Assembly: GCA_965197895.1 (NCBI GenBank)
Contig: OZ240232.1
Span: forward strand, 228,211-292,210
Reading direction: 5' to 3'
Source: Candidatus Versatilivoraceae bacterium
Lineage (GTDB): Bacteria; Acidobacteriota; Terriglobia; Versatilivoradales; Versatilivoraceae
DNA: 64,000 bases
This document shows positions 5,538-46,971 of this stretch, piece after piece (the first letter of the stretch is position 1; the number at the start of each line of letters is the position of its first letter). Position numbers and translations under genes: made by a program. The notes beneath the pieces are model-generated. The model did not search any database, had not been told where the DNA came from, and saw only the letters and a list, made by a program, of their open reading frames with translations.

Positions 5538-5683
5538 GGTAAAACCTCCCTCCATCACTTTGGATGGGTTAGTAACCTGGATGGCTGACCTTCGGTTCCA
5601 CGTTAGCCAAGCGCCAGGGCAGTCTAATCCAAAGCCCGGTCACGTTCAAGGATTGGAGTGATTGCTGAGGCCGGAAACCGTTA

Positions 5684-7123
5684 ATGAAGAAGCGAATCAT
5701 CCTGATCGGCTTTTTGCTTTGGACTGTCTTTGCAGTGGAGCGGCTGCAGGGCCACGGCGTCCTGGGCCAGGTGGTTCAGCACCACATCATTGTCACAGCC
5801 GGGGAGTTTCATATTGATGTGACAGTTGAACTGACATTTCATTCCGTTTTCGCCCAACGAGAACGCCAACGGTTGGATACCAATCGCGATGGGTTCATCG
5901 AGGCTAAGGAAGTCGAGCAATACCTTGCCGGTATTTTGGCCAAGCTCGAACCAGGCCTGAGAATGGAGACTCGGCAGCGAGAGATTGACCTGATACGGTT
6001 GCACCCTCCCGAGCTGGATTTATTGGGGAATGAGGAGTCAGGGGCTCATCCGCTCCGAGTGAGTGCCTTCTACCTGGCCAGACTTGACCGGGGGTTGCGG
6101 AAGGCGGGCGTTGTGGACCTGGAGGATCGCCTTTGGATGGAGGGTCATGCTCTGGCTATGAACACCACCAGCCTGGTGCGGGATCCCGATCGATACTATC
6201 TCTACGGCTGGATGTTCGACCGGGTCCACCGGCAGGGTGGGTTGACGGGCTACGCTCACGTTCATCGAACCTATCCTCAACTGCATCGGGACATGAGTAT
6301 CAATGTTCCCAAAAACAAAGTGGATTTCCTCGAGTTGATGCAAATTGGTATTTTAGGGACGAATCTCTACTACGAGTTTCTCAATCTCGGCTTCAAATTG
6401 ACCGCCGCCGCCGGATCGGATGTGCCTTTTGCGGGTACCGTGGGGGAAGTCAGAGTTTATGCTTACGCCCAGGAGCCTGCCGATGCCGACTCTTGGTTTG
6501 AAGCCGTGCGTCAGGGGCGGACCTTCGTCACCAATGGCCCCATGCTGGAATTGGAGGTCGGGGGAGCCATGCCGGGTGGGGAGGTCTTGGTGGAAAAGGA
6601 CCGGAAGGTTCGAGTCCGCGCGCGGACCTGGGGCCATCCCGAGCGGTCCCGCCCTTCTCGATTGGAGATTGTGCGCCACGGTCAGGTCATCCGCCAGGTT
6701 CACCCTGGCCATGCCGGTGAGCACGAATTGCGCCTTTCTTTCGAGCTTGAAGCTGAATCCGGCTACTGGATCGCGGCCCGTGCTGAAGGGGCCGATGGAT
6801 CTCGAGCCCATACCACCCCGGTCTACGTGGTTCGGAAACCCCTTCGTTTCTGGAAATACGACCAGGTCGAGCCGCTGATCACAACCCGACTGCATAGCTT
6901 GGTTGAGGTGGAACGCTTAGTGGACCAAGCCACCTCCATGAGCCAAGGCCAAATTGCTTATGAGCCACTGGGCACGGGTGAGGGCACCGGATGGTGGGAG
7001 ATCCAGCGCCTGGCAGAGCAGGGACCCGAGTTGCTGGAAAGGGTGGCGGAGGCCAGGAGGATCTATGAGCAACTGCGAGAAACCTGGAAACTGGAAAAGT
7101 CTCAGCGTGAGGGGGCCCGTTGA
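5684..7123 (+). CDS. secreted hypothetical protein (possible PHP/CehA-like metallohydrolase C-domain)
   Basis: N-terminal signal peptide MKKRIILIGFLLWTVFAVERLQG. The central segment GYAHVHRTYPQL...AAAGSDVPFAG...RTFVTNGP resembles PHP-type metal-dependent hydrolases. The functional assignment is weak. Confidence 0.5.
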   Translation: MKKRIILIGFLLWTVFAVERLQGHGVLGQVVQHHIIVTAGEFHIDVTVELTFHSVFAQRERQRLDTNRDGFIEAKEVEQYLAGILAKLEPGLRMETRQREIDLIRLHPPELDLLGNEESGAHPLRVSAFYLARLDRGLRKAGVVDLEDRLWMEGHALAMNTTSLVRDPDRYYLYGWMFDRVHRQGGLTGYAHVHRTYPQLHRDMSINVPKNKVDFLELMQIGILGTNLYYEFLNLGFKLTAAAGSDVPFAGTVGEVRVYAYAQEPADADSWFEAVRQGRTFVTNGPMLELEVGGAMPGGEVLVEKDRKVRVRARTWGHPERSRPSRLEIVRHGQVIRQVHPGHAGEHELRLSFELEAESGYWIAARAEGADGSRAHTTPVYVVRKPLRFWKYDQVEPLITTRLHSLVEVERLVDQATSMSQGQIAYEPLGTGEGTGWWEIQRLAEQGPELLERVAEARRIYEQLRETWKLEKSQREGAR

Positions 7124-7188
7124 TTCTTTGCAGAGGGGTCTCGCTCCGGGGATCGGGCGGGTGTACGACAAAAACGTTGGAATCGCAA

Positions 7189-7670
7189 ACCGGTTTAACG
7201 GGACATGGTCCTTGCTCCCGAAAGGCCATGAAGGCCGGTTGTTTCACCCTCGAATGATCCGCCCCGTCGTGGGGGGCGGGGGCCCCACTTGCCTGAAACA
7301 AACCTGGGCTCGGGTGACGGAAAATCGGTTCAACAGATTGAAAGAAAGGGGGTTGGAGAGGAATTGACAACTTCTGGGGGTTATCCAGGAAGGACACGGA
7401 GCCACACCCTACAATTCCCGGCGTTGGGTCTCGGCGTCGAGCATGAGTCGATCCCTGATTAACATCGATAGACAGGATAAACAGGATGGTTTGGAGAGAG
7501 GTTTCAGCGTCTTGAGTTCGACCATCGCCTTTTCTTCAACAAGGATTCCAAAAACCCGCTCCCAAGTTCATGGATCACTTCAAACGTGCACCCGATCATC
7601 GAGCGAGTCAGCTTCCTGTGCAGCAACACCCTTACAAATTCCAGTAACGTTTAATCTCATCCATTACAGT
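7189..7670 (+). repeat. single copy of the dispersed ~490-bp repeat unit (MITE-like core plus spacer), directly upstream of integrase 1
   Basis: Near-identical to the units in the 16805-17885 array and to 25915-26440 (inverted). Contains ATCGATAGACAGGATAAACAGGAT 9-mer iteron inverted repeats. Confidence 0.7.
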
Positions 7671-7738
7671 CCATAACTGTATTTTATATCAGTGGTTTAT
7701 ATGAGTCCCGCAATCGCGCGGCCGGCTCGAAACATCCC

Positions 7739-7773
7739 TTGCAATCCACTACCATCCCCCATATAATTAGGGG
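7739..7773 (+). promoter_or_regulatory. sigma70-type promoter TTGCAA-17nt-TATAAT with the -10 box inside the palindrome CCCC-ATATAATTA-GGGG, abutting the integrase ATG (leaderless mRNA predicted)
   Basis: TTGCAA at 7739-7744, 17-nt spacer, TATAAT at 7762-7767, ATG at 7774. The same architecture recurs at 39825-39859 in front of integrase 2. Confidence 0.55.
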
Positions 7774-9006
7774 ATGATTAATGTAACCAAAACCACCCGC
7801 CTGCTACTTAAGACGAAACCCAAGGGCCGCCATCCCCCAAAGGCCCTCTCGGCTGCCTTCATCCGCTCCGCTCCGCCTGGAAGACACGCCGACGGGAACG
7901 GATTGTACCTCTTCGTCCAACCCAGCGGAACCCGCAGCTGGATTCAGCGCCTTCTCGTCCGCGGTCGCCGCCGTGAGCTCGGACTCGGAAGTGTTGCCCT
8001 CGTTCCATTGGCCGAAGCCCGGGAGAAGGCCCTCGCCAACCGCAAGCTCGCCCGCCAGGGCGGAGACCCGCTCGCCGAGAAGCGCCGTGCCGAAGGCATC
8101 CCCACTTTCGCCGAAGCCGCCATGCGTGTGCTGGAGCAGAAGCAGGGCGGATGGCGCGGGCAGCGTCACCCTCGCGAGTGGCTGTCGAGCCTGAGGCGGT
8201 TCGCCTTCCCTCGCATCGGCAAGGTGCCGGTCTCAGAGGTTACGAGCGCCGACGTGCTTGAGATCCTCACGCCCATCTGGCACCGGAAGATAGAGACGGC
8301 CCGGCGAGTGCGCCAGCGCCTGCGGGCGGTCCTGGAATGGGCGGTAGCGATGGAGTACCGCCTTGACAACCCCTGCGACCGGATCGGACCGGTGCTGGGT
8401 GCCCAACAGGACGTTACCGAGCACAGGCAGGCCGTGCCCCATCGGGAGGCGGGTGCGGTGATCCGTAGGGTGCGGGCATCGGCAGCGCCGCCGGGCGTCA
8501 AGTTGGCTCTTGAGTTCCTGGTGCTGACGGCAGCCAGGTGGGGCGAGGTGCGGTGGGCCGAGTGGGAGGAGATCGATCGCAGCGGGAGGGTGTGGACCGT
8601 CCCGGCCAGGCGGATGAAGACGAACCGCCGGCACCGGGTGCCGCTGTGTGGCCGCGCCCTGGAGATTCTCGACACTGCGGAGATACAGGAGGGGGGAGTC
8701 GGTCCACTGGTGTTCACCCATAGGGGCGGGAAGCCTCTCAATGACAGCGTGCTGCGCCGGCTGCTGCGGGAGCTTGGGATTGCGGCGGTGCCGCACGGTT
8801 TCCGCTCGACCTTCCGGGATTGGGCGGGTGAGGAAACGGATCATCCCCGGGAAGTGATCGAGGCGGCCTTGGCGCATGTGGTCCGGAACCGGGTGGAGGC
8901 GGCCTATGCCCGCTCGGACCTGTTCGAACGCCGGCGCACGTTGATGGACGAATGGGCGCGTTACCTGGCCCAAGGGTCGGGAGAGGATCTGGAGCCCGTG
9001 GGATAA
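7774..9006 (+). CDS. int: P4-type tyrosine integrase (DUF4102 arm-binding N-domain + phage-integrase catalytic domain)
   Basis: N-terminal GRHADGNGLYLFVQPSGTRSWIQR (Arm-DNA-binding), C-terminal HGFRSTFRDWAGEE...AHVVRNRVEAAYARSDLFERRR with the R..H..R..Y catalytic residues. ~85% identical to the 39860..41092 copy. Confidence 0.9.
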   Translation: MINVTKTTRLLLKTKPKGRHPPKALSAAFIRSAPPGRHADGNGLYLFVQPSGTRSWIQRLLVRGRRRELGLGSVALVPLAEAREKALANRKLARQGGDPLAEKRRAEGIPTFAEAAMRVLEQKQGGWRGQRHPREWLSSLRRFAFPRIGKVPVSEVTSADVLEILTPIWHRKIETARRVRQRLRAVLEWAVAMEYRLDNPCDRIGPVLGAQQDVTEHRQAVPHREAGAVIRRVRASAAPPGVKLALEFLVLTAARWGEVRWAEWEEIDRSGRVWTVPARRMKTNRRHRVPLCGRALEILDTAEIQEGGVGPLVFTHRGGKPLNDSVLRRLLRELGIAAVPHGFRSTFRDWAGEETDHPREVIEAALAHVVRNRVEAAYARSDLFERRRTLMDEWARYLAQGSGEDLEPVG

Positions 9007-9162
9007 AGAGGCGGCCAGGGATCGGACCGACTCCACAGAAGGCGAGTCAGCGCCTCTGAGAGAGTGTGCCAGTCTCTAAGCACGGGACTACACCCGGACC
9101 ACCGCCCTCTTCGACACGCTGATAGTCTTCAGAAAGCTTGAATCTGCCAGCATGGTGACTGC

Positions 9163-10128
9163 ATGCCCAAGACCAGGGAAACCATGATTGCCCACCTGAA
9201 CGGACGGGAAAAACTGCTGAGGCCTCTTGGCTTCACCCCCCAACAGGCCGAATGGATCACCCTGGTCTGCCTGCACTCGGGCCTGTTCACCCGAGACCAG
9301 GTCGAGGCTTTCTTCGGATACGCCAAGTCTACCGCCAACCGCTTTATCCAGGCGTTGCTCCAGACACGCATTTCACACAAGCCAATAGCCTCGGAGACCA
9401 TCACCGACGGCCGCCGAGTTTGCCGGATCTTCGGCAAGCAGATCTACGGGGAGCTGGAGGTCCCCCACATCCGTCACCGCCGGGAGACCTCGCTTGAAGT
9501 CACCCGGCGGCGACTGCTATCGCTCGATTTCGTGCTGGATCATCCGGAGTTGGCTTGGCTGCCGACCGAGCAGGAGAAGGTCGCCTGCTTCCAACAGCTC
9601 GGGATCGAGCGAGGCTTTCTGCCTTTCAGGATCTACTCCGGCCATGCCAAGGGGCAGGTCCGGTATTTCCCCCTCAGGCTACCGGTTGCCATGGGGCCGG
9701 AGGCGGCCGTATTCGTCTACATCGACCCCGGCATGGGAACCCGTACGGAGCTGGACTCCTGGAGACATACCCACCGGCCGCTTTGGCAGGCGCTCCGCGA
9801 GTGCGGCTGGCGGATCGAGGTGGTTGCGGTCGCCTGGGAGCAGGAACTCCTGGACCGCGCCGAGCGGGTGATGCAATCCTGGGTCGGCAGAGACCTGACT
9901 GAGGCCGGCAGAGAACTTCTCATTCTCCGGTGGGCTGTCTCCAACGCCGACCGGGAAACAGTCGAACGCTATGGTGGCCTCAATGCCGCCCTCAAGAAAA
10001 TCAACCAATTGAAGCAGGCAACGCCGGAGCCCCAGGGCCTGGGAATGATCGACGATTTCCACCTCTGGGGGTCAAGGCGGTGCCGTCGTAGGCATGCGCC
10101 ACTGAAAAAGGGGGGGTGGCTCCTCTAG
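9163..10128 (+). CDS. integrase-element-associated hypothetical protein (wHTH-like N-terminus; possible replication/maintenance function)
   Basis: 321 aa, co-directional with int. A 5'-truncated paralogue lies at 46972..47506. No recognisable catalytic motif. Confidence 0.55.
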   Translation: MPKTRETMIAHLNGREKLLRPLGFTPQQAEWITLVCLHSGLFTRDQVEAFFGYAKSTANRFIQALLQTRISHKPIASETITDGRRVCRIFGKQIYGELEVPHIRHRRETSLEVTRRRLLSLDFVLDHPELAWLPTEQEKVACFQQLGIERGFLPFRIYSGHAKGQVRYFPLRLPVAMGPEAAVFVYIDPGMGTRTELDSWRHTHRPLWQALRECGWRIEVVAVAWEQELLDRAERVMQSWVGRDLTEAGRELLILRWAVSNADRETVERYGGLNAALKKINQLKQATPEPQGLGMIDDFHLWGSRRCRRRHAPLKKGGWLL

Positions 10129-10323
10129 TGGCGCACGCTCTTGACCACCGCAATGCTTCTCTCTCAGAGAGCGGAGCCCTCTCTGCTGTGGTCGGGGCCT
10201 TGCCTGGAAAGCCTTGTTGGAAGCGGTTTGGCACGGATTCCTGGCGTCGGCTGAGACAGCCGTGGTGGGGTGGCGGCTGGCGTGTTCCCGCCTCGCCCGG
10301 CGCACCGCACGAGACGGGTGATG

Positions 10324-10459
10324 GTGGAGGGAGCGACCCCCCGATTTTTGCCGCTGGTGCGGCACCGGGGAGGGGTAAAGGGTGACAGGCAAAACGACAC
10401 CTTTACCCTCCCCTTAAAGGGGGGTCGCTCCCTCCACAGTGATCCCTGCGGGAAGGCTG
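10324..10459 (+). repeat. palindromic module copy 1: 17-bp perfect inverted arms GGAGGGAGCGACCCCCC / GGGGGGTCGCTCCCTCC around a nested hairpin, with tail ACAGTGATCCCTGCGGGAAGGCTG
   Basis: Arms at 10326-10342 and 10419-10435. Other copies at 41208-41342 (inverted) and 47711-47846 (different centre). Confidence 0.75.
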
Positions 10460-10619
10460 ACGAGCCGATGAGGAGGTCAGGGCCGCCGCATCGACCACAG
10501 GCGGTGCGCTGCGCGGACCGACTGGAAGGAATTCAGTGGGGCAGTGTGGCGGGTGACCAGGGTGTCGAAGAAATGCCTGAGGGCAGCCAGGCTTGGTTGT
10601 TGGTTGCGTTTGGACATCG

Positions 10620-11108
10620 TCATGGACAAGATCCTTTATTGTCCTGAGGATACCAATCGCGAATTTGTGCGTTATTTGTTACACGCATTTTCTGGAAGCA
10701 CTCCATCGCACGCGTGAGATTTTGGGTTAGCGAATAGTAGTTGTCGATTGCGCGTTCCAGCATGTCCTTCGCCTCCTCATTTGCATCAAATTCGACAGTC
10801 TTCGAATCGCCAGGAGACCAGTGCTTTAGCTTATTCCTTGCGTAGTTTGCTCGTTTGGCAACGTCCCTTTCACTGAGTTCCCCGTCATAAAGCTGCTTGT
10901 GGATTTCAGGGACATCTTTCTTGAGAGAGTCCAAAGAATTCTCAGACTTCTCAAGTTTGTTTTCCTTTAGAAGTTTCCCAAAGATCTCCTCTGAAGCGCC
11001 CGCCAATGTGATCACGGAATAGTAATCCTCTTGTTCGAAGTACAGGCGAAGGGCGGTTTCAAGTTGCCTAAGCGCCATACACTGCGGGTCATGAGCCATG
11101 AGGGTCAT
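10620..11108 (-). CDS. small alpha-helical protein with Rx4H (HEPN-like) motif
   Basis: Start at ATG 11108 (AAGGAG SD 6 nt upstream) gives MTLMAHDPQC..., 162 aa. Contains ...AKRANYARNKLKHW. Local GC is markedly lower than in flanking genes. Confidence 0.5.
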   Translation of the reverse strand: MTLMAHDPQCMALRQLETALRLYFEQEDYYSVITLAGASEEIFGKLLKENKLEKSENSLDSLKKDVPEIHKQLYDGELSERDVAKRANYARNKLKHWSPGDSKTVEFDANEEAKDMLERAIDNYYSLTQNLTRAMECFQKMRVTNNAQIRDWYPQDNKGSCP

Positions 11109-11205
11109 TACATCTCCTTCTATCCTGTGTTGCGTCGAGCGCCTTACGGGAATACTGTTCCCGGGGCCGCTTGAATGTACTTCATACTCATCCATCGCCC
11201 GCGTT

Positions 11206-13779
11206 TTATTTTACCGCTGCTAGGCGCCCTGCGATGTCCGCTAGCGCCAGAGATCGGTAATACGCGTTCTTGATATGCATGGCAATTGTCATCGCGTGCT
11301 TGAAGTCTCCTTCTTCCGCCTGCATCACGGCGATGTCCACCAAGGCACTGCTACCAAACCCGGCCTCTTCGACGCTGTGGGCATTTCGCACAGCAGCGGC
11401 TATGTCTCCAAATTTCGCCTGCTCTGTGATGAACTCCTCAATGTTGTTAGACACGCTGGCTCTGTCACCAAGTTCGTCGATTGCGCGGGCATGAGCAGCC
11501 TTGAGGGCGGAGGCGAATGTCTGGTTGGCTTGCGGCGCATGCCCTGCTTCCATTTGTGCGGTGGCGATCTCGCACAAGCTTTCGACGCGGGAATTGGCAG
11601 CGCCAATGCCACGGGCGGCTCGGAAGGCGGCCCCAAATGTTTGCATGGCTGCTGGACCATCCCCCGTTTTTGCCTGCACAGTGGCGATCTCGCGTAACGT
11701 CTCCGCGCAATGGACTCTGAACCAACCGGGACATAAGGCAGCCTGAGCGGTGGCGATCTGTAGTGCTTTCCAACTGTCTGGAGATGATGGATCCCACTGC
11801 CCTAAAATAGCCTCCAATTGTTCTGGAGTGGTGTCCTTCGGCGCTTCAGCTGTGAATTTCTTACTGCTTTTCTCGTGTGTGACTTCATATTTGCTCATCG
11901 GAATGCCGATGGGCTGAGCAAGCTCAAGAGCAGCGGCGATGTCTCCCGCTTTCGCCTGGGCCACAGCGATGTCCATCAAGGCCCAGCTACGGTCCCAAGC
12001 GTCATCAATGTCATAAGCGGCCTTTAGGGCAGTGGCGAGCATTGACTTGGCTGCTTGCTTGTCCCCGACTTCCCTCTGTGCATCGGCGATCTCGCACAAC
12101 GCTCGTACTCGATTTTCGGGCTGGCCTATTTCGTGGGCAATCTTGAGGGCCGTGGCGAATGTATGCCCAGATGCGAGTCTGTCTCCCAATTCCGCCTGCT
12201 TCTTGGCGATATCATCAAGCACCGTGGCCCGTTTTTGGGCAGACTCGATGGTGTGAGCAGCCTCTATGAAAAGAGCAATGTCATCTGTTGTTTTCGTGTG
12301 CTCAGCGACGAGTTGGTGAAGCATCTCAGGCCGAGAGGGGAAAAAGCCATAGTCGGAAAGATTGCGGGTAGTTGAGAGGGCAGCAGCTATATCTCCTGCC
12401 TCCGCTTGAATAGTAGCCATTTTCTCCAAGTAAGAGTCCCGACCCCAAGACGCGCTAGCTTCGATATCGTGAGCCTTCTCCAAGGCGAGAGCGGAATCAG
12501 CTGTTTGTCTGGCTGCTCGCAAATCTCGTGCTTCTGCCTGCCTTTCGGCAATCCCGTACAATGCGCCGACGCGTTTTTCAACATCGTCGATATCGCGAGC
12601 GGTCCGGAGCCCGCCGGCGATATCGCCTGCTTCTGCTTGCTCTATGGCGATATTGCTCAAGGTATAAGCGTGAGACCCTGCTCCGTCGATAGCAGCGGCA
12701 ATTGTTTGTCTGGCTGCTTGCAAATCTCCTGCTTCTACCTGCACCTTGGCAATCAATCGCAATGCCCCGACGCGCGTTAAGACATTGTGGATACCGTAAG
12801 CAGTCTGGAGGCCGCCAGCGATATCCCCTGCTTTGGCCTGGGCGGTGGCGATTCCGTGCAGGATTTCAGCGCGGACAGCGCGGAGTGTCCCGCCAATACT
12901 GCTGGCGGCCTTGATGGCGGCGGCGAATGATTGTTTGGCTACACTCAAGTCACCTGCTTCCGCTTGCGCTGTACCGATTTTCCGAAACACGACGGCGCGA
13001 GAAAGACTGTCGTTGATGCTGTTTACCCCATGCAATACAAGGCCTATAACGCACTCGTAGTTCGGGTTCTTCGGGCACTCATTGCGTCGCGTTGCTTCCA
13101 TGAGCTGTGATCGACCCTGGACCCGCAGTTCTTCGATCCACTCCGCCGGCAAGGCAAAGTTCAAACTCTCACCCCGCCACTTGAAGGTTGTGATTCCCAC
13201 CAGTTCGCCGGATTGATTGAAGAGCCCGCCGCCCGATGAACCCGGAGAGATGGCCGCATCCGTCTGCACCAGGGGCGCGGACCGCTTGCCGAAAGCGCCG
13301 CGCAGTTGCGATACGACCCCACGCGACAGCGACAGTTCCAGTCCCGCCGGAGCGCCCACCGCGTACACTTCCTCGCCTACCGACAACACCTTGGCTGCAC
13401 CCAGTCGGACTGCCTGAGCTGCCGGAGGCTCGGGCAACTGGTCCACGAACAGGAGACACAGATCGCGCTCGTCATTTCGCGCCAGCAAGTACGCGGGCAT
13501 CCGGTAGGTTTCTCGACCGGACCAATCAGCTGCCTGGCGCACCGCGACATCGGCCGCCTTACGAAGCACATGGCAATTGGTGACCACTTCGTAATCTCCC
13601 ACGACCACGCCGCTGCCTTGGCCTGTCGTCTTGCCTTGCTCATCCAACGCCAACACGACAACCACCGAGGGAGCTACTTTGGTAAAGACATCCTTGGCAG
13701 AGGCTCCCCAAGCACTAGCTGGCAAGGTCAGAACCGCCCACGCAATGACGGCGGCGCGGAGAATGAGCGTCACTTTCAT
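11206..13779 (-). CDS. secreted trypsin-like (S1/Trypsin_2) serine protease fused to ~13 HEAT/PBS-lyase-like repeats
   Basis: Signal peptide MKVTLILRAAVIAWAVLTLPASAWG. Catalytic His in VVTNCHVL, Asp in ERDLCLL and Ser in AISPGSSGGGLF. Followed by ~650 aa of degenerate repeats centred on I-A-x-A-Q-A-E-A-G-D-I-A. The internal DNA repeats generate many spurious opposite-strand ORFs. Confidence 0.75.
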   Translation of the reverse strand: MKVTLILRAAVIAWAVLTLPASAWGASAKDVFTKVAPSVVVVLALDEQGKTTGQGSGVVVGDYEVVTNCHVLRKAADVAVRQAADWSGRETYRMPAYLLARNDERDLCLLFVDQLPEPPAAQAVRLGAAKVLSVGEEVYAVGAPAGLELSLSRGVVSQLRGAFGKRSAPLVQTDAAISPGSSGGGLFNQSGELVGITTFKWRGESLNFALPAEWIEELRVQGRSQLMEATRRNECPKNPNYECVIGLVLHGVNSINDSLSRAVVFRKIGTAQAEAGDLSVAKQSFAAAIKAASSIGGTLRAVRAEILHGIATAQAKAGDIAGGLQTAYGIHNVLTRVGALRLIAKVQVEAGDLQAARQTIAAAIDGAGSHAYTLSNIAIEQAEAGDIAGGLRTARDIDDVEKRVGALYGIAERQAEARDLRAARQTADSALALEKAHDIEASASWGRDSYLEKMATIQAEAGDIAAALSTTRNLSDYGFFPSRPEMLHQLVAEHTKTTDDIALFIEAAHTIESAQKRATVLDDIAKKQAELGDRLASGHTFATALKIAHEIGQPENRVRALCEIADAQREVGDKQAAKSMLATALKAAYDIDDAWDRSWALMDIAVAQAKAGDIAAALELAQPIGIPMSKYEVTHEKSSKKFTAEAPKDTTPEQLEAILGQWDPSSPDSWKALQIATAQAALCPGWFRVHCAETLREIATVQAKTGDGPAAMQTFGAAFRAARGIGAANSRVESLCEIATAQMEAGHAPQANQTFASALKAAHARAIDELGDRASVSNNIEEFITEQAKFGDIAAAVRNAHSVEEAGFGSSALVDIAVMQAEEGDFKHAMTIAMHIKNAYYRSLALADIAGRLAAVK

Positions 13780-13787
13780 GGGATCGA

Positions 13788-14069
13788 TTATACCCTTCCG
13801 CGTCTCAGGAAGGGTTCGGTTTGCTGCGTTCGATTGGTGTAAAGGCCCGCCCTGTGACTTTCCCCCGAATTTAGGTCCGACTCCAGGCCGCGATACTGCT
13901 TCTTCCAGCGGTAGAAGGTCGGCTCCGCAATGCTTAACTTTCGGGCAAGGTCGGTCGCCGAAACCGCCAGATCGTGTTGCTTCACTGCTGCAACGATCTG
14001 CTCAACCGAGAATCGCTGACGCTTCATCTGACACCCTCCTTCCTTTCTTGGGAGTTTGTCAGAATTCAC
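13788..14069 (-). pseudogene. IS3-family OrfA (HTH) remnant
   Basis: MKRQRFSVEQIVAAVKQHDLAVSATDLARKLSIAEPTFYRWKKQY matches the IS3/IS911 OrfA N-terminus. It breaks off after ~55 aa and no OrfB follows. Confidence 0.6.
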
Positions 14070-14103
14070 TTTCTCAGTGGATCAGCTGTTGGGGAGACCC
14101 TCA

Positions 14104-14275
14104 ATTGATACTCGGCTGACCAGTCCGCTAACGTCCCTGAGGGTCCCGTGGATTCCTTTTTGAAAAAAGGGATATAATGAGGAAACTGTAGCGGGCTGAT
14201 CCGCGTTAAGTCTATTATAATTAATGGTTTATATTTGAGAGATTGCAGGCTGTGCAGGCGCGGGCTCGTTGTGAG
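14104..14275 (+). repeat. P1 repeat copy (TTGATACTCGGCT...GGGATATAATGAGG...GCAGGCTGTGCAG)
   Basis: Homologous to 16506-16804 and 48001-48165. Confidence 0.7.
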
Positions 14276-15005
14276 ATCTGGATAGGCGATCGATGTGTAA
14301 GGCTAAAGCTTTCCTCAGTGATCGAGAAGACCAGAAGGCGAGACCAATGGTGCAGACCGCCAAACCTGCATACATTACGGGTTGATGGTGACCGGCCAGC
14401 AGACTGAGCGCCAGGCACAAACCCGCCAGATTGGCATGGAGAATCCGGCGGCTGGGTTTTATGGTTTGCAAGGACTTGGCATAGAACAGGAAGACTGCCG
14501 GTACCCACACCGAGGCGTAGAAGAGGCTGGCCGCACTAACCACCCGCATGCCGATGGAGCCTGAATAGGCGAAGATCACGGCGGCCACACAGGAGCTGAA
14601 GGGACGAAGACCCAGGTGCCGTCCGAGCAGGTAAAATAAAAAGGAGGCAATGATGCAATGAAGGATGAGGAATCCTTCAATCACGGAAACAGGGATGAGC
14701 CCATTGGGGTTGAGGGGAACCAGTCCCAGGAGAAGATTAGGAGGGTAGAAGATCCCTGGTTGCATTTCGCCGGCAAATGGACGCCCGGCATCGGTGTAAC
14801 TGTCCCAGAATGGAAAGCTTCCCTGGTGTAAAGTACGGGCGATGTACTGAGCCCACGGATAAGTCTGATCGGCGGAGTCTTCATGCGTTAGTATCGAATA
14901 CTCGGCTGTAAAGACCACCTTCCAAAAGATGGCTATGCCAAAGAAAAAAAGGAGTAGGCCATATTTCCAAGTGTTTCTTTTACGGTGCCACGCCACGGGA
15001 ATCAA
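14229..15005 (-). pseudogene. YfhO-like polytopic membrane protein, 3'-truncated by IS3-remnant/P1 insertion
   Basis: N-terminal ~250 aa (DQTYPWAQYIARTLHQGSFPFWDSYTDAGRPFAGEMQPGIFYPPNLLLG...) match the YfhO family, which is normally >700 aa. The last 8 codons and the stop are supplied by the P1 repeat. Confidence 0.6.
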
Positions 15006-15364
15006 CTCTTGTCAGGAGAAATGACAACGGTAAGGCAAAAACGATAAGGAGGGAAAAGAACGCTGGTGCTTCAGATCGGAGAAGCCCTCCGCTTTAGATA
15101 ACTTGGTATTGCGATTTCTTGTAAGTTCCCCCTCTGTTCCCCCACGACGGGGTGGATCATTATATTCTAAGGTAAGTCTAGGCCCGTGCAAGCCATCATT
15201 ACAAATAAGGCTTGCCCTGAAGCTCTCTCCTGGGCAACGCTTGACCGGTACCGTCATCTCGGACCGGAACCGGTCGTAGAGGTTTGTTGAACAGCCACTA
15301 AAATCTTAAAGCTTCATCCCGCTTGACCAATATCGCCGGCGGCACAAGATACAAAGGAATTCCG

Positions 15365-16327
15365 ATGGCTTGCAGAACAACCAGTGTGTTCGAGAAGGAG
15401 ATGCGGTCTCTGGGATGGTGGTATCAACATTTCGAATTTCCCAATGGAGTCAAGACCGGAACCGGAGCCCCTCCAGGATACGACGCCCGAAGCCGATGGT
15501 CATTTATTGAGGCATTTGTTCCAGACGACCTGACGGGGAAGACCGTCCTGGATCTAGGGGGCAATGCTGGTTTCTTTTCAATTCAGATGAAGCTCAGGGG
15601 GGCTCAAAGATGCGTGCTGGTGGATCCGTTTGAGATCGCAATCAAACAGGCTGGGTTTGCGGCCAGGCAATTCGGCGTCAGCCTGGAACTGGTCATGGAG
15701 GACGCACATACCTTTTGTCTGACGACAGAAGAGCGATTCGATTTCGTGCTCTTTCTGGGCTTGTTTTACCACCTCAAATATCCGGGCATCGTGCTGGACA
15801 GGCTGGCTGAAATCACGCGAGAGCGAATCTACATTCACTCACACGTCATCGGTCACAAGAGAGAACCTTTTATCAGCAAACCGGACTACAAGAGGAAAAG
15901 TGACGACCACTTGCTGGAACACCCCGGTTTCCCAAGGCTGGCGTTTGTGGAAGCGCAATACAACGAAGATTCTACGAACTGGTGGATACCCAACCGGACT
16001 GGAATGGAGGCCATGGTAAGAAGCGCGGGCTTGCGCATCATTGACCGGCCTCACCGCCAAATAATCGTCGCAGTTCCCGAAATTTATTTCGGGAAGCAGA
16101 TATTTTCGAAGCTGGTGTTCCCGAGGTATGGCAAGAAAGGAGGTGCGGTCCTTCCTGGCTCACAGCGGTATGACCCTGAAGCGTGGATAGAAATATCCGA
16201 GGCCATTGCCGAAAGGCCGGTGGAGAAAACGAACTTTATCGTACGGACGGGGTGGAAATGGATTAACCGATTGCGGTCCCTGTACCTGAAGATTCGCAGT
16301 CGTCTGGTGAGCAAGCTGAGGCAATAA
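15365..16327 (+). CDS. class I SAM-dependent methyltransferase (DUF1698/CmoB-like)
   Basis: Motif I VLDLGGNAGFFSI, then acidic LVDP and DFVLFLGLFYHL. ATG at 15365 has an AAAGGA SD; the track start at 15323 is TTG. Confidence 0.8.
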   Translation: MACRTTSVFEKEMRSLGWWYQHFEFPNGVKTGTGAPPGYDARSRWSFIEAFVPDDLTGKTVLDLGGNAGFFSIQMKLRGAQRCVLVDPFEIAIKQAGFAARQFGVSLELVMEDAHTFCLTTEERFDFVLFLGLFYHLKYPGIVLDRLAEITRERIYIHSHVIGHKREPFISKPDYKRKSDDHLLEHPGFPRLAFVEAQYNEDSTNWWIPNRTGMEAMVRSAGLRIIDRPHRQIIVAVPEIYFGKQIFSKLVFPRYGKKGGAVLPGSQRYDPEAWIEISEAIAERPVEKTNFIVRTGWKWINRLRSLYLKIRSRLVSKLRQ

Positions 16328-16505
16328 TGTTCAAGAACCGCACTGATCCATCCTCCTACTTCCTTTACGTCAAATCCTGACCTGCTACCCTAGGACGTGC
16401 GGCTCGAGGCCGTGTAGTACCTGGTCGGCCACGCCAACCCCATTTCCACCCAGATCTATCACCGGCCCACGATTTGCTCGACGGACTTGGACTCCCGGAC
16501 TCACG

Positions 16506-16804
16506 ATTGATATTCGGCTGACCTGTCCCTCAGTAACTGTTCGGTCAAGCCGTGATGGCTTGGACCCGGACGAGGTTGGAGGTGCCTGCAATCACAGGCG
16601 ATCCGTCGGTTCTGCTCGCTGCGCCTCCCCGGGACGGCGGATGGTCTCCACGGCTTGGCCGAACGGTTACGTCCGCCAACGTCCTGGAGGGTCCAATGGA
16701 TTCCTTTTCGAAAAGAGGGATATAATGAGGGAACTTCAGTCGGATAAACCATATTAAGTCTATTATAATTAGAGGTTTACAAACTATAGGTTGCAGGCTG
16801 TGCA
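16506..16804 (+). repeat. P1 repeat copy carrying a ~130-bp internal insertion
   Basis: Shares both ends with the other P1 copies; the extra segment lies at 16520-16690. Confidence 0.6.
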
Positions 16805-17885
16805 GCAGCTTCTCGTCCTGTTTATCCTGTCTATCCTGTCTATCGATGTTCCCTAATGCAACAAACCGGTTTAACGGGACATGTCCCTACTCCGGAAAGG
16901 TCATGAAGGTCCGTTGTTTCACTCTCGAATGATCCGCCCCGTCGTGGGGGCGGGGGCCGGCTTGCCTGAAACAACATCTGGGTTCGGCTGAAGGAAAACC
17001 GGTTGAGGGGTTATCCAGGAAGGACACGAAGTTACACCCTACAATTCCCGGCGTTTGGTATCGGCCTCGAGCATGAAAAGACTAATTGACATCGATGGAC
17101 AGGATAAACAGGATTATTTGGCGAGAGGTTTCAGCCTCTTGAGTTCGACCATCGCCTTTTCTTCAACAAGGATTCCAAAAACCCGCTCCCAAGCTCATGG
17201 ACCCCTTCAAACGTGCACCCGATTATCGAACCAGTCAGCTTCCCGTGCAGCAGCTTCTCGTCCTGTCTATCCTGTCTATCCTGTCTATCGATGTTCCCTA
17301 ATGCAACAAACCGGTTTAACGGGACATGTCCCTACTCCGGAAAGGTCATGAAGGCCGGTTGTTTCACTCTCGAATGATCCGCCCCGTCCTGGGGGGCGGG
17401 GGCTATACTTGCCTGAAACAAACCTGGGTTCGGGTGAAGGAAAACCGGTTCAACAGATTGAAAGAAAGGGGGTTGGAGAGGAATTGACAACTTCTGGGAG
17501 TTATCCAGGAAGGACACGAAGTTACACCCTACAATTTCCGGCGTTTGGTATCGGCGTCGAGCATGAAAAGACTAATTGACATCGATGGACAGGATAAACA
17601 GGATTATTTGGCGAGAGGTTTCAGCCTCTTGAGTTCGACCATCGCCTTTTCTTCAACAAGGATTCCAAAAACCCGCTCCCAAGCTCATGGACCCCTTCAA
17701 ACGTGCACCCGATTATCGAGCCAGTCAGCTTCCTGTGCAGCAGCTTCTCGTCCTGTCTATCCTGTCTATCGATGTTCCCTAATGCAGCAAACCGGTTTAA
17801 CGGGACATGGTCCCTGCTCCCGAAAGGCCATAAGGGTCCGTTGTTTCACCCTCGAATGATCCACCCCGTCGTGGGGGCGGGGGCC
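16805..17885 (+). repeat. tandem array (~2.3 units) of the ~490-bp repeat
   Basis: The units beginning at about 16805 and 17230 are >90% identical, and a third partial unit begins at about 17725 and ends at 17885. Each unit holds a ~340-bp segment bounded by 23-bp inverted repeats ATCCTGTCTATCCTGTCTATCGAT / ATCGATGGACAGGATAAACAGGAT. Confidence 0.8.
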
Positions 17886-18341
17886 GAACCTGTCTGAGAT
17901 CACCCGCCAGGAATCATTGCTGCCGCCGCCTACGCGGCTCCCCTTGACCCCCCGGGCTGGCGCCCGGAGGATGATCATTAAAAAATCCTGTCCCCCGGCA
18001 GCGTTGTTATTTTTGGGAGAGCGGCGCAGCCGCGGCAGCACTTCGCCCTCGTGATGTTTGAGGGAGACTTTGGCCGCGCGTTCAGACCGCTTGCGGTTAA
18101 GGGGGAGGCCAGCAGCCATGCCGTCTGCCCGCAGTCGCACCGCCAAACCAGCGACGGGAAGATAGGCATGAAGACTCTTCATATCTGATAACGAATACTG
18201 ATACAGATACAGATATCCATGCTATCCCGCTGCCAGTAGGCCCTACGCGCCTCGCCTCACGAAGTTGTCGTACACCCGGGATCGGGCTTGCCTTTGGCTG
18301 GTGGTTGCCTGTAGCCTGGATCATGCGGGTTAGGAGAAAAG

Positions 18342-25641: not shown

Positions 25642-25914
25642 TCCAGGGAGGGGTCCCCGGCAATACTCAAAGTAGGGGTTTTAGGGCGAAGCAGGCCTTG
25701 GGCCGGGGGGAGCGGGCGCTGCCGCTGCTGCCCGAAGCCCGAGGAGTAGGGCCCCGAATGAATGCGACCAGGATGTTGCTTGAGGATTCGGGGACGGACG
25801 GCCCAAAGAGTCCCAAGGAGGCAATGGGAAGGCCGCTTACCAGACCTTCCCTGGCAGTGGGACTGTCAGGTGATTACCGTCACTGTACAGACACGGGCGG
25901 ACCAGAGGTAAGTG

Positions 25915-26440
25915 GGGCCCCCGCCCCCCAGGACGGGGCGGATCATTCGAGGGTGAAACAACGGATCCTTATGGCCTGTCGCGAGTAGGGACCATGTCCC
26001 GTTAATCGGGTTTGCTGCATTAGGGAACATCGATAGACAGGATAGACAGGATAAACAGGACGAGAAGCTGTTGCACAGGAAGCCGACTCGCTCGATGATC
26101 GGGTGCGCGTTTGAAGTGATCCAGTAGCTTGAGAGCGGGTTTTCGGAATCCTTGTTGAAGAAAAGGTGATGGTCGAACTCAAGGGGGTGAAAACTCTCGT
26201 CCCGGAGCATGCAGCCCAGACCATCAACAAACCATCCTGTTTATCCTGTCCATCGATGTTAATCAGGGATCGACTCATGCTCGACGCCGAGACCCAACGC
26301 CGGGAATTGTAGGGTGTGGCTCCGTGTCCTTCCCGGATAACCCCCACAAGTTGTCAATTCCTCTCCAACCCCCTTTCTTTCAATCTGTTGAACCGGTTTT
26401 CCGTCACCCGAACCCAGGTTTGTTTCAGATAAGTATAGCC
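25915..26440 (-). repeat. inverted copy of the ~490-bp repeat unit
   Basis: Reverse complement of the 16805-17885 array consensus. Confidence 0.75.
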
Positions 26441-26450
26441 CGAGCCGGAT

Positions 26451-26972
26451 TTAGTCGAGAATAGACTCTTTCTGACTCTCTTCTCTGAAATCCCCCGCAG
26501 CGCGAATGACGTAACGACGGAAAGAATCGTTCGGTTCACAATTGGGAAGGTGGCGGCATATGGCCTCCATGGCTTTCTGTAGAACCTTAGAATCTTCGTA
26601 CCTGATATATTCACCCAACACCCCGTTCCTGATCTTTTGATCGATTTCGTGCTCCATGATGACCAGTTCAATTCTACTGATCTGAAGTTCACTCCTTATT
26701 CCGTTCAAACCGACCAACAGAAGTTCCGTGGCTATCTCATGCTCTGCCAGCACGTCATTCCGTAGTTGAGAGGATTTACTGATCTCGGTATTGATTACTC
26801 TGTTTAGGGCAGACACTTTTTTCCAAAGAACGACCACTTTGCTATAAAGATCACCTATTTTCTTTTGCAATCTTCTTTTTTCGGGGTTGGTAAAATCGCC
26901 TGGGATTTCCTTCAGTTTTTTTTCAGTTTTATTATATGAGCCTTTTGCAAAATTCGGAATCGGGCATGACAT
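26451..26972 (-). CDS. hypothetical protein in AT-rich islet
   Basis: ~174 aa (MSCPIPNFAKGSYNKTEKKLKEIPG...). Conspicuously low GC. Sits between a repeat copy and an IS. Weak SD. Confidence 0.35.
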   Translation of the reverse strand: MSCPIPNFAKGSYNKTEKKLKEIPGDFTNPEKRRLQKKIGDLYSKVVVLWKKVSALNRVINTEISKSSQLRNDVLAEHEIATELLLVGLNGIRSELQISRIELVIMEHEIDQKIRNGVLGEYIRYEDSKVLQKAMEAICRHLPNCEPNDSFRRYVIRAAGDFREESQKESILD

Positions 26973-27099
26973 TGGGCTGGCAAAGGTGATGTTCCGCTGG
27001 TGACTACCCGACAGTAAAGACACTTCTGAACGGAAATACCTGGATCTGATGGCCAGATCGCCAGCGGTCGCCGGGCGCGGGCACAGCTTGCCCTCTGCC

Positions 27100-28350
27100 T
27101 GCCCTACGGCGGGCAAACCTGCTGCCTGTTCGGGGTGGCGGCCGAGTCTTCAGAGCGTCAGACGCATCAACTGTTCCACCGTCAGCGCGAGAATGCCGAA
27201 CATCAGGTGGCACATCACCTTGCCAGGGCCGCGAACCCTCACATGCCGCCCGCCAAATTCGTCCTTGAGCCGCCCGTTCACCCGCTCCACGGTCGAGCGT
27301 TGGCGGTAGCGTTGCGCCTCAGGAGACACGTGACCGATACAGCGCTGCGCCAGCGCCTCCCGCTTCCGCTCGGCTTTCACCTCCGGTCGCCTGCGGGGGT
27401 TGACGTCAATGATCGGCACATGGCCCAGCGTCTCACTGAAGGCCCGGATCTCGGGCGCGTCATAGGCGCTGTCCATCAAGTCGTAGAGGCTGTCGACCCG
27501 GCTCGCCGTCAGCCTCGCCAGCGGGATGGCCGCCTGACTGTCATGCACCGACGCCGAGGTGAGCAGGCAACTGACCGGAATCCCGCCGTCGATCGCGTCC
27601 AGGTGCAGTTTGTAGCCGGTCCAGCTCTCCTGATGCCCCTTGGCGTTGCGCTTGACACCGATGTCGCAGACCTTCGGCAGGTCCTTCAGCATCTCCTGCA
27701 GCGTCATCGACGCCTGCCGCTCCAGGCGGCGCGGCTCCTTCGGCCGTTGCTCGCCCTTCCGCGGCCGGCCCCGCCTTCGCTTCCGCTTACCCGTCGGGGC
27801 GCGCTTGGGCGCCGGCGACTCGCGTCCCGGGATGGCGGTGGAGTCCCTCGACACGTGGCCCGCCAGATGGCCCTCCAGCGTTCGGTCCAGCAGCGCCTCG
27901 TGCAGGCGCCCCGGCAGGTCGCTCTCAGCGAATGCCGCAAACGCGCGAGAGAAGGTCGCCTCGCTCGGCACCGCCCGCGCCCCCTCCCAGCCGCACAGCC
28001 GGCGCAGCAGGCCTTCCGTCCTCAGCCGCTCCACCAGCGCCCGCGTGGTAGGCATGTCCAGCACCGCCTTCGCCAGAAAGGCCCGCGCCAGCGCCGCCCG
28101 ATCCTCCAGCGGACGACCCCGCCAGCCCCGGCTGTAGGGCAGCGACTCCTCCACCCGCACCAACTCCAACACCCGGACCAGCCGCTCGTAGCGCTCGCCC
28201 AAGGGGCCCAGAGCCTCCTCCAGCCAGGGGAACAGCTCCCGTTGAAAGGTGAACCAGTGTCGTGATAGGGTTTGTTTAAGGGACAAGTTCTACCTCCGTT
28301 CATCATGTGGACTACGCACCTCCATGATACAACAGAGTGTGGACTTGTCC
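27100..28350 (-). mobile_element. IS5/IS4-family insertion sequence (approximate ends)
   Basis: Contains the transposase gene 27150..28286. A GGGACAAGT/ACTTGTCCC hairpin lies at 28287-28347 near the presumed left end. Confidence 0.6.
27150..28286 (-). CDS. DDE transposase, IS5/IS4 family (DDE_Tnp_1 type)
   Basis: 378 aa. Carries a KR-rich linker, D..YD..H.....A.VERVNGRLK and a C-terminal YRQRSTVER.NGRLKDEFG signature. Confidence 0.9.
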   Translation of the reverse strand: MSLKQTLSRHWFTFQRELFPWLEEALGPLGERYERLVRVLELVRVEESLPYSRGWRGRPLEDRAALARAFLAKAVLDMPTTRALVERLRTEGLLRRLCGWEGARAVPSEATFSRAFAAFAESDLPGRLHEALLDRTLEGHLAGHVSRDSTAIPGRESPAPKRAPTGKRKRRRGRPRKGEQRPKEPRRLERQASMTLQEMLKDLPKVCDIGVKRNAKGHQESWTGYKLHLDAIDGGIPVSCLLTSASVHDSQAAIPLARLTASRVDSLYDLMDSAYDAPEIRAFSETLGHVPIIDVNPRRRPEVKAERKREALAQRCIGHVSPEAQRYRQRSTVERVNGRLKDEFGGRHVRVRGPGKVMCHLMFGILALTVEQLMRLTL

Positions 28351-28789: not shown

Positions 28790-28990
28790 AGAAGCCGGTG
28801 GGAGACACACGGGGCCCCGGCTCCGGTCGGGCTCGTCCTTCCTTCGCTGGGCCCCTCACTACCTCCTCAGGTCCTGATGGAGACACTCACCCCAAGAGGG
28901 GCTATACTCATCCTCAACAGCAGAGCTCCACAACTGAGGAATACACCTTAATTCTGCCAATCAGCTGTCTAAAAAACGGGACCACCTCAA
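28790..28990 (-). repeat. IS3-terminal-region-like repeat (solo)
   Basis: Its reverse complement aligns, with one indel, to 63303-63475, the segment between DUF4276 and the IS3 OrfB stop. Confidence 0.55.
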
Positions 28991-31218: not shown

Positions 31219-31749
31219 TCGACACCTCCCCGGATACCTGCAGCACCCTTGCCACCACCCGCATGTCGCTGCTAGCGTGGCTACGGAGCTTGGTTTCTGT
31301 ATCTCACATCGATAGACAGGATGGACAGGATGAACCAGATGGTTTTCTGTCTCTATTATCCTGTCCATCCTGTTCATCCATGTTCCATTTCATCGATCCA
31401 TAATCTTCCACAGGTCATGCAGCAAGCGCAGGGTCTTTCCGAAGACATCAATCAGCAGTTTGCTAAAGGTTAGCCTTGCCCCCGCCCCATACGACGGGGC
31501 GGATCATTCGAGGAAAAACGGCTGATCGTTAATGAAGACGAACCACGAATGGACACGAATAGACCAGAAGACAGATGGGCCTCCTTCAACGACAAGCGGC
31601 ACCAAAATGCATCTGCAATTTTGTGACCTTGGTGCAGCCCTTGGTGTCCTTCGTGTCCATTCGTGTCCCTTCGTGGTTCTTCGTGCCCCTTCGTGGATTT
31701 CTTTTTTTTGGCCTTGGTGGATAACCCCTCAATTGGTTTCAGGTAAGCC
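31219..31749 (+). mobile_element. 531-bp non-coding insertion flanked by 23-bp direct repeats (GGTCTGARGCMGAGCCTCGCTAG) that duplicate the BNR-gene stop codon
   Basis: DRs at 31196-31218 and 31750-31772. The interior holds a TIR-TIR hairpin of the 9-mer-iteron MITE (31296-31400) and a CACGAAGG-type iteron block (31600-31700). Confidence 0.6.
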
Positions 31750-31768
31750 GGTCTGAGGCAGAGCCTCG

Positions 31769-39215: not shown

Positions 39216-39339
39216 GGCCGAGGAATCAAAGGTCGGGCACAGGGCGGGAGGATGCTAACACAGATCCAGCCCATCTCAACGGGAAGAGGCTTGCCTGAAA
39301 CCAATTGAGGGGTTTATCCACAAAGGCCAAAAAAAGAAA

Positions 39340-46966: not shown

Positions 46967-46971
46967 ACACC

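Follow-up and report, generated by a model that had tools for sequence, protein, structure and literature searches.

A probable miniature GxxExxY gene cassette, amplified in tandem and entered by integrase islands, in a Candidatus Versatilivoraceae bacterium

A stretch of 64,000 nucleotides from contig OZ240232.1 of a Candidatus Versatilivoraceae bacterium, referred to below as the window, contains a repeat of ~490 bp that is both dispersed and arranged in tandem, carries opposed runs of a 9-mer and lies close to integrase genes. This raises the question of what the repeat unit is, which part of it is bounded by the inverted runs and how it is related to the integrases. The answer favoured here, and held to be probable, is that the repeat derives from a small GxxExxY gene cassette with inverted 9-mer ends, of which it is a dead miniature that has been amplified in tandem, and that two integrase islands have been inserted into copies of it.

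A gene remnant between the 9-mer runs

With one unit (17245-17734) as query, BLASTN against the 64-kb window returned copies at 7186-7617 (91% identity, E 2e-174), 16800-17243 (88%), 17735-17897 (84%), 26441-25906 in inverted orientation (82-88%, E 1e-57 to 8e-110) and 48148-48299 (82%), and at least five repeat loci are present within the window. A self-repeat search yielded identical families with periods of 445 and 481-490, and Tandem Repeats Finder (TRF) placed 3.2 copies of the 9-mer TCCTGTCTA at both 16816-16844 and 17261-17289, with the complement at 26032-26060. BLASTN, repeat search and TRF thus agree on the dispersed and tandem ~490-bp repeat with inverted 9-mer runs described in the initial annotation. 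The copy coordinates given there were accurate to within a few bases, apart from the end of the first copy, which is at 7625 and not at 7670 (an island arm begins at 7626); the last unit of the array reaches about 17897 instead of 17885. In gene sense (minus strand), a unit consists of a GC-rich hairpin module, a module termed A1, ACATCGAT followed by 2-3 9-mers (the leader), a deleted GxxExxY remnant, the inverted 9-mers with ATCGATGT, and a module B. The copies and their opposed runs are as follows.

16798-17897, minus strand: tandem array of 2.3 units, beginning at the right-hand attachment core of island 1 (attR, 16798-16807), with the last unit extending to about 17897
7186-7625, minus strand: left part of the same former array, severed by island 1 and terminating in the core CTGTGCAGCA (7616-7625)
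25906-26441, plus strand: single inverted unit, directly downstream of the minus-strand gene 26451-27116
48146-48299, minus strand: right part of a unit split by island 2, comprising core, two 9-mers, A1 and hairpin module
17261-17292, plus strand: left 9-mer run, three TCCTGTCTA and then TCGAT, which the minus strand reads as the in-frame leader IDRQDRQDRQD; equivalents at 16816-16847, 17751-17773, 26029-26060 and 48164-48186
17580-17603, plus strand: right inverted run ATCGATGGACAGGATAAACAGGAT, on the minus strand NPVYPVHR, a tail also found on intact genes; equivalents at 17090-17113, 7463-7486 and 26235-26258
17365-17425, plus strand: GC-hairpin module (gtttcacYcTCGAATGATCCGCCCCG..GGGGCGGGGGCC..CTTGCCTGAAACAA), which separates units; further modules at 7245-7305, 16920-16974, 17847-17897, 25906-25955 and 48260-48299, and alone at 15139-15164 and 31478-31512

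Between the 9-mer runs, translation of the minus strand gives IDRQDRQDRQDEKLLHGKLTGSIIGCTFEGVHELGSGFLES..., and the 26-kb copy gives ...ILVEEKVMVELKGVKTLVPEHAAQTINK. The remnant peptides match positions 2-26 and 64-91 of the PF13366 (PDDEXK_3) / TIGR04256 (GxxExxY) profile. Joined, the two parts reach an E value of 5e-8. By itself, the C-terminal fragment attains 24.9 bits (Pfam cut-off, 22); against TIGR04256, with a cut-off of 35, the window fragments score 13-25 bits, the region of the catalytic Asp being deleted. A custom hidden Markov model (HMM) of 137 positions, built from 60 intact GxxExxY proteins, detected five remnants in the window, none of which covers positions 43-75. One of them (39650-39715) accompanies repeats of a sister element described below, and the others lie within the units.

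17120-17283, minus strand: GxxExxY pseudogene remnant that spans HMM positions 1-42 and 76-94 (of 137) and has lost the region of the catalytic Asp
17610-17773, minus strand: second GxxExxY pseudogene remnant of the array, with the same deletion
7493-7626: GxxExxY remnant in the severed unit, detected by the custom HMM
26038-26231, plus strand: GxxExxY remnant of the inverted unit, retaining more of the C-terminal part (ILVEEKVMVELKGVKTLVPEHAAQTINK)

To judge from its sequence, the ~165-bp stretch is hence an internally deleted gene for a predicted GxxExxY nuclease of the PD-(D/E)XK type on the minus strand. Since the minus-strand peptides and the HMM identify this remnant, the 9-mers are best read as its repetitive 5' end (DRQDRQD) and not as free-standing iterons. 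No intact open reading frame (ORF) is present in the repeat, which contains stops and frameshifts and lacks HMM positions 43-75. The window copies match the N- and C-terminal parts of the family profile but are frameshifted pseudogene fragments, in which profile positions ~27-63 and 92-116 are missing and with them the catalytic Asp; by this sequence comparison they are remnants of the family and not members, whereas the intact relatives are full members. The earlier view that ORFs in the units are conserved only as DNA applies in so far as the small ORFs, with their broken frames, are not conserved as proteins. As the stretch is the remnant of a real protein gene, the repeat is nevertheless not purely non-coding in origin.

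The interval bounded by the inverted ends can be read from a bare hairpin reported in the initial annotation.

31296-31400, plus strand: bare hairpin, two cassette ends face to face with the interior deleted (ACATCGATAGACAGGATGGACAGGAT ... ATCCTGTCCATCCTGTTCATCCATGTTCC)

The hairpin proved real: folded as DNA it reaches -20 kcal/mol (z = -4.4), and none of 200 shuffles folds as well. In an alignment it matches the outer ends of the gene remnant (left ACATCGATrGACAGGAT, right ATCCTGTCyATCCTGTyyATCsATGTTCC), with the ~150-bp interior absent. Because of this match, the bounded element is the gene-remnant cassette of ~165-200 bp with ATCGAT outward, and not the ~340-bp stretch that separates successive remnants. 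Intact genes in other genomes fill the ATCGAT-outward interval.

The ~340-bp segment itself is a composite, in which the upstream region A1 and the GC-hairpin module are combined with the tail that belongs to a sister element. Hairpin module (61 nt) and A1 (72 nt) together make up the ~130 bp upstream of the gene and accompany the leader in almost every copy; both occur without module B at 12 loci or more (at least 12), and the hairpin module is also found solitary. The latter is an extragenic, GC-rich imperfect palindrome of ~60 nt, present in 38 copies in about 0.25 Mb of retrieved sequence, either single, doubled or beside other elements. In these features it resembles repetitive extragenic palindromes and bacterial interspersed mosaic elements (REP/BIME), but it differs in being attached mainly upstream of GxxExxY-type leaders. 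Module B holds GGATAACCCCTCAAyyGGTTT and CACGAAGG-type repeats and is the tail of the sister element, minis of which lie at 31467-31760 and 39280-39640.

31467-31760, plus strand: sister mini element of the same layout with another repeat (CACGAA..), consisting of hairpin module, leader repeats, ~75 bp, inverted repeats and the tail GGATAACCCCTCAATTGGTTT
39280-39711, plus strand: sister-element repeats with an antisense remnant of a GxxExxY N-terminus (39650-39715), ending in the core 39702-39711, which is the left-hand junction (attL) of island 2

The sister family with its CACGAAGG-type repeats was also seen at positions 9410-9560 of a retrieved locus (L029), and its repeat run is expanded to ~300 bp at 39280-39640.

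Intact relatives, deletion derivatives and arrays

Relatives in other genomes were sought with a consensus-like probe derived from the window remnants and known family features, which served as query only. At E <= 1e-10 it retrieved 7917 proteins among 8000 candidates scored (PF13366). The closest intact relatives begin with M(NI)D(A/R)QDKQDKQD..LLHEKLTRSIIGCAFEVINELGSGFLESVYEKA, following the reading pattern MNIDAQDKQDKQD..LLHEKLTRSIIGCAFEVINELGSGFLESVYEKA, and the C-terminus reads ...NPVNPVYPVHRC in 9 of the 34 sequences retrieved. The intact cassette, seen in other genomes only, contains a GxxExxY gene of ~135-165 codons. Its reading frame begins within the 9-bp repeats (ACATCGAT/ATGGAT + [rrACAGGAT]n, translated as M/I-D-R-Q-D-K-Q-D), and downstream of the gene lies the inverted run [ATCCTGTyy]n + ATCGATGT.

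In two Acidobacteriota-like metagenome-assembled genomes (MAGs; L019 and L020, contigs of 4.9 and 3.7 Mb) the gene is flanked by gspE and gspF of type II secretion; it starts with AACATGGATGCACAGGAT... and ends with ...AATCCTGTTAATCCTGTATATCCTGTGCATCGATG, the inverted run forming an in-frame 3' tail (N-P-V-Y-P-V-H-R-C), and directly upstream of it are 3-4 tandem, internally deleted minis, each bounded by both runs. Two further MAGs, one from Deltaproteobacteria (L022) and one from Gammaproteobacteria (L026), have the gene in a type I restriction operon, flanked by hsdR and hsdM, where it starts in GACAGGAT repeats; its stop is followed by a degenerate second leader, 15-40 nt and the inverted run, which is the same structure as the bare hairpin of the window. 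On both sides of the intact cassette of L022 (hsdR/hsdM) the motif AGGAG(TT) occurs, at 1985-2000 and 2495-2515, and could represent a target duplication of 5-7 bp or two ribosome-binding sites.

A structural model of an intact protein (pLDDT 80) displays a minimal PD-(D/E)XK fold. Three residues, D76, E86 and K88, are invariant in the intact relatives and, as far as sequence can indicate, consistent with an active nuclease. Queried for defence systems, PADLOC matched neither the integrases nor the intact protein.

Across the window and 29 further loci, at least five distinct internal deletions were found, all of which retain leader and tail. The ORFs found with the remnant in metagenomes are without exception short (17 of 17, 50-121 aa) and devoid of the gene middle, and in 8 of these 17 the deletion junction and the frameshift (GFLESLLKKRRWSNSRR) are those of the window. 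Three variants, each with its breakpoints fixed, were encountered repeatedly at unrelated loci: the full mini, an N-terminal fragment cut at 33 and joined to sister repeats, and an N-terminal fragment cut at 68 and joined to the module P1 (see below). An exact 24-mer gave 19 matches, all in two Candidatus Versatilivorator genomes (Acidobacteriota in NCBI taxonomy) out of 185,579 species genomes. The mini cassette measures about 215-250 bp between ACATCGAT and ATCGATGT, with arms of 24-33 nt. Such a series of end-preserving deletions, together with dispersed copies, is a hallmark of a mobile element with non-autonomous derivatives.

Arrays of units also occur in L011 and L015, and arrays of other minis in L019 and L020. 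In the window array, exactly one hairpin module stands between successive units, and a solitary unit in L029 has a hairpin module at its start and, at its end, the initial ~16 nt of a second one. The array units of the window differ from each other by 11-16%, which indicates that the array is old. No integrase was present near the arrays of L011, L015, L019 and L020 in the stretches retrieved. As arrays thus occur without an integrase in the stretches retrieved, the proposal of the initial annotation that the tandem array arose by repeated site-specific integration is not upheld. A metagenome scan for the unique right flank of the array gave no matches.

Integrase islands and their attachment core

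The integrase encoded at 7774-9006 contains the domains PF13356, PF22022 and PF00589 (arm-binding, central and catalytic), and a copy at 39860-41092 is 86% identical. Each gene is part of an island, at the distal end of which lies P1. This module had already been recognized as separate in the initial annotation, at a size of ~165 bp, and is present at 14105-14249, 16506-16797 and 48001-48145.

7626-16797, plus strand: island 1, 9172 bp, with integrase-side arm (7626-7773), integrase gene (7774-9006), cargo, internal P1 (14105-14249) and terminal P1 (16506-16797)
16506-16797, plus strand: P1, forming the attR arm at the integrase-distal end; interrupted by an insert of 125 bp (16536-16660) and directly adjoining the core at 16798
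39712-48145, plus strand: island 2, 8434 bp, with integrase gene (39860-41092), group II intron fragments, a gene for a leucine-rich-repeat protein and P1 (48001-48145)

Alignment of the junctions reveals where the islands entered. The uninterrupted unit reads ...GTCAGCTTC-CTGTGCAGCA-GCTTCTCGTCCTGT..., the integrase side ...GTCAGCTTC-CTGTGCAGCA-ACAyyCTTAyArATTCC..., followed after 148 bp by the start of the integrase gene, and the P1 side ...TTGCAGG-CTGTGCAGCA-GCTTCTCGTCCTGT.... Unit, integrase-side junction and P1 junction share only CTGTGCAGCA, and homology switches exactly there. This 10-bp core is present in five exact copies, at 7616, 16798, 17733 (the uninterrupted unit), 39702 and 48146. 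If 7626-16797 or 39712-48145 is removed in silico, the unit restored in each case aligns colinearly with intact units, with identities of 89% and 84%, respectively. P1 junctions of the same kind are found in two further loci (L004 and L006). Taken together, the shared-core junctions, the restored units and these additional junctions indicate that P1 is the integrase-distal end of P4-type islands that target the 10-bp core CTGTGCAGCA in the gene remnant. The link between repeat and integrases suspected in the initial annotation is thereby given a concrete form, with islands inserted at CTGTGCAGCA within unit copies.

The islands of the window share with P4-type tyrosine-integrase islands the terminal position of the integrase, the variable cargo and a short core that recurs unchanged at the two junctions and in uninterrupted targets. 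They differ in that the target is the multi-copy remnant of a selfish element and not a tRNA or tmRNA gene, and in the extra internal P1 of island 1. The latter (14105-14249) is joined to a degenerate leader and ATCGATGTG, and island 1 is therefore composite or rearranged. At an orthologous locus (L021, ~80% nucleotide identity) the PhyH gene leads straight to the AP-endonuclease gene without window positions 5658-18285 (12.6 kb), units included, and the array accordingly lies in a lineage-specific variable region. At 7277-7941 of L021 an HTH_37 gene stands in place of the 12.6-kb variable region, and the 479-aa gene 5684-7123 is absent too.

Several further features of the islands were observed. 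A candidate arm motif shared by P1 and the integrase-side arm (TGGTTTATAT.TGAG) was not above chance and was discarded. When viral contigs were searched with the integrase, the sole match was a relative of 42% identity located at the end of a contig, and in a Versatilivorator genome (L014) a distant tyrosine integrase (6306-7532, 30% identity to that of the window) lies ~500 bp from a mini cassette (5770-5820). The 3' end of the integrase gene is found three times, at 8836-9014, at 40922-41100 and as an isolated fragment at 41727-41905 (residues 354-410), the last of which points to rearrangement inside island 2. Group II intron fragments of island 2 lie at 42284-42427 and 42980-43122 on the minus strand (Rfam RF00029, 41 bits, and RF02003, 79 bits), beside the ORF 42205-43236. 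The cargo of this island includes an ORF of 1256 aa (43196-46966, plus strand) that consists mostly of tandem repeats of 72 nt (24 residues, leucine-rich-repeat-like; 43501-45408). Both islands contain a 19-bp palindromic pair, GTGGAGGGAGCGACCCCCC / GGGGGGTCGCTCCCTCCAC, at 10306-10474, 41208-41361 and 47693-47862 in shuffled order and orientation, which may be another small repeat element.

Competing explanations and proposed history

In the initial annotation, the unit was regarded as a miniature inverted-repeat transposable element (MITE) with a mobile core of ~340 bp bounded by ...TCCTGTCTATCGAT / ATCGATGGACAGGAT..., the ~165-bp stretch being a spacer. Within the tandem array both intervals do lie between inverted repeats, and a folded unit pairs both runs across the 340-bp segment. 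This delimitation is nonetheless highly improbable, since the bare hairpin, with ATCGAT outside, matches the ends of the 165-bp stretch, intact genes sit in the ATCGAT-outward interval, and the 340-bp segment falls apart into separately occurring modules (A1 and hairpin without B, hairpin alone, B as the tail of another element). A further possibility is that the units are arrays of attachment sites, with the 9-mers serving as arm-type sites of the neighbouring integrases and the array built by repeated site-specific integration. It is usual for integrase attachment sites on the mobile partner (attP) to contain arm repeats in direct and inverted orientation, an arm-binding domain is present in both integrases, each located 148 bp from a unit, and islands do integrate into the unit. 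However, the 9-mers form in-frame ends of GxxExxY genes where no such integrase is nearby, other phyla included; the second integrase lacks adjacent 9-mers; the core at which crossover takes place is situated in the gene remnant, 8-20 bp from the 9-mers; and units that diverge by 11-16% are not recent products of integration. On this evidence attachment-site arrays are very unlikely, if somewhat less so than the 340-bp core.

Somewhat better placed, though still unlikely, is the view that the unit is a structured non-coding RNA (ncRNA) or small-RNA array, in which RNA function would keep the repeats conserved. Pairing of the two 9-mer runs can give a stem of 24 bp, and in L019, L020, L022 and L026 the cassette is co-oriented with its operon neighbours and probably co-transcribed. 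Stems of this kind serve as RNase III sites in the intervening sequences of 23S rRNA (PMC4990558). Against an ncRNA speak the lack of any Rfam match to the unit even at E <= 1, z-scores of only -1.7 and -0.8 for single-sequence folds of the unit, the lack of compensatory pairs among the hairpin modules, a scan for promoters and terminators that gave no excess, and the interior of the unit, which is a decaying protein gene. The conserved RNA structure considered in the initial annotation therefore received no support from Rfam, covariation or folding, while an RNA-level role of the runs would be compatible with the gene-cassette explanation. An iteron-type replication origin, as suggested in the initial annotation, or a plasmid or phage remnant is scarcely credible. 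It would account for short tandem direct repeats in two opposed groups, but the repeat occupies at least five loci in 64 kb and has 19 exact matches in two chromosomes, the neighbouring genes scanned contain no replication-initiator domain, no turn in GC skew is seen, and in intact copies the repeats are translated parts of a gene.

The gene-cassette explanation, preferred over these alternatives, has to be set against a number of results that weigh against it. No intact GxxExxY cassette was detected in the window or in 18 Versatilivorator loci (L001-L018) by G..E..Y regular expression and HMM, and a source of nuclease acting in trans in the window's own genome is hypothetical. No target-site duplication is consistent across cassette copies, and no clean empty site was found, the spacers downstream of gspG in L019 and L020 not being alignable; for this reason, the mobility of the cassette rests on copy distribution and deletion series. 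For the protein, no PDB relatives were found by sequence, and the fold search returned only generic PD-(D/E)XK relatives, lambda exonuclease and Cas4 SSO0001, with TM ~0.45. GxxExxY / PDDEXK_3 has no demonstrated activity and is listed by Pfam as of unknown function (PMC3424549). RNAalifold yielded no compensatory pair in 31 hairpin modules. Finally, the junction of an excised island circle (attP), which would read P1...TTGCAGG-CTGTGCAGCA-ACACCCTTACAAATTCC, was not found in viral and JGI metagenome contigs, nor was the attL junction.

The proposed history starts from what is observed, namely the cassette architecture, the conservation of the runs across phyla, the fact that the window copies have lost the catalytic core, and the integration core. 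In the lineage of the window, an internal deletion would have removed the catalytic core while both ends were retained. The resulting mini would then have multiplied along with the ~130 bp upstream (A1 and GC-hairpin module) and a fragment of the sister element (module B), with the minis spread either in trans or through recombination. The simplest source of the tandem arrays, and a likely one, is slippage or unequal recombination between flanking 61-nt hairpin modules. Separately from this, the two 86%-identical P4-type integrases have placed islands of 8.4 kb and 9.2 kb into the core CTGTGCAGCA. The inverted 9-mer runs are the sole part kept by every derivative and are conserved across phyla, and hence most likely represent the cis-acting sites of the cassette. 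The 9-mer/ACATCGATGT ends could be sites of binding or cleavage by the nuclease, or could form a long RNA stem as in the 23S rRNA intervening sequences.

Comparison with known systems places the mini cassette close to MITEs and their parent transposons (e.g. Correia/NEMIS of Neisseria). Both are small non-coding derivatives that keep the inverted ends of a coding parent, exist in many intergenic copies, include several independent internal deletions and have inverted ends able to form a stem in a transcript; a size below about 600 bp, terminal inverted repeats, absence of coding capacity and a coding parent with the same ends are all found in the mini cassette. Unlike in MITEs, the parent encodes a PD-(D/E)XK protein of ~140 aa and no recognised transposase, its only ORF being PDDEXK_3; the ends are runs of a tandem 9-bp repeat, translated as N-terminal leader and in some copies as C-terminal tail; no target-site duplication consistent across copies was found; and the copies tend to form tandem arrays. 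GxxExxY and four-helix-bundle genes have both been reported at intervening-sequence positions of rRNA. The 23S rRNA intervening sequences share with the cassette the design of a selfish unit of a few hundred bases, in which one small ORF is bracketed by inverted repeats and which is tolerated inside transcription units. In Coxiella and Leptospira (S23p type) they are small ORF cassettes with stems cut by RNase III (PMC4990558). The cassette described here differs in its location outside rRNA (none is present in the window) and in its ORF family, and RNase III processing would apply to it only by analogy.

GxxExxY proteins are very common in bacterial genomes, and the family is without assigned function. 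Bracketing inverted runs, end-preserving derivatives and tandem pile-up lead to the testable hypothesis that their genes are selfish cassettes with the runs as cis sites. Stated most widely, the hypothesis is that a class of mobile cassettes so far undescribed is built around GxxExxY (PDDEXK_3) genes, thousands of which have been recorded; the ends of these cassettes would be inverted 9-bp runs doubling as leader and, in some copies, as tail, the nuclease would act on these runs, and MITE-like minis and arrays would arise from the class. This generalization is put forward tentatively and is at present doubtful. If it were true, the occurrence of one and the same GACAGGAT repeat in Acidobacteriota, Delta- and Gammaproteobacteria would testify to a single element lineage that has spread horizontally. 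A selfish cassette would also explain many spurious, low-complexity annotated ORFs (DRQDRQ..., NPVYPVHRC), and the use of a multi-copy selfish remnant as landing site of islands suggests a route by which a mobile element could create hotspots for another. The protein family was already known by name; in the literature searched, outside subscription journals, no description of GxxExxY function, flanking repeat runs, minis or integrase targeting was found. What is added here are the putative MITE-like derivatives of a selfish small-gene cassette and their apparent targeting by integrases, and the formerly unexplained repeat of the window can now be annotated with pseudogene, island and attachment-site features.

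Beyond the repeat and the islands, the window contains DUF1501, DUF1549 and PSCyt genes, which at first sight suggest Planctomycetota. This assignment was rejected, as the repeat has genome matches in Candidatus Versatilivorator only and the top named protein hits come from Acidobacteria or Bryobacteraceae. Exact-sequence look-ups of the PhyH and DUF1501 proteins of the window returned no record. A DDE_Tnp_1/DUF772 transposase gene (27150-28286, minus strand) lies ~700 bp from the inverted copy 25906-26441. Inverted repeats at 28792-28989 and 63316-63478 are unexplained. Direct repeats at 58120-58266/61195-61341 (95%) and 35099-35256/42071-42228 (81%) are unrelated to the ~490-bp repeat.

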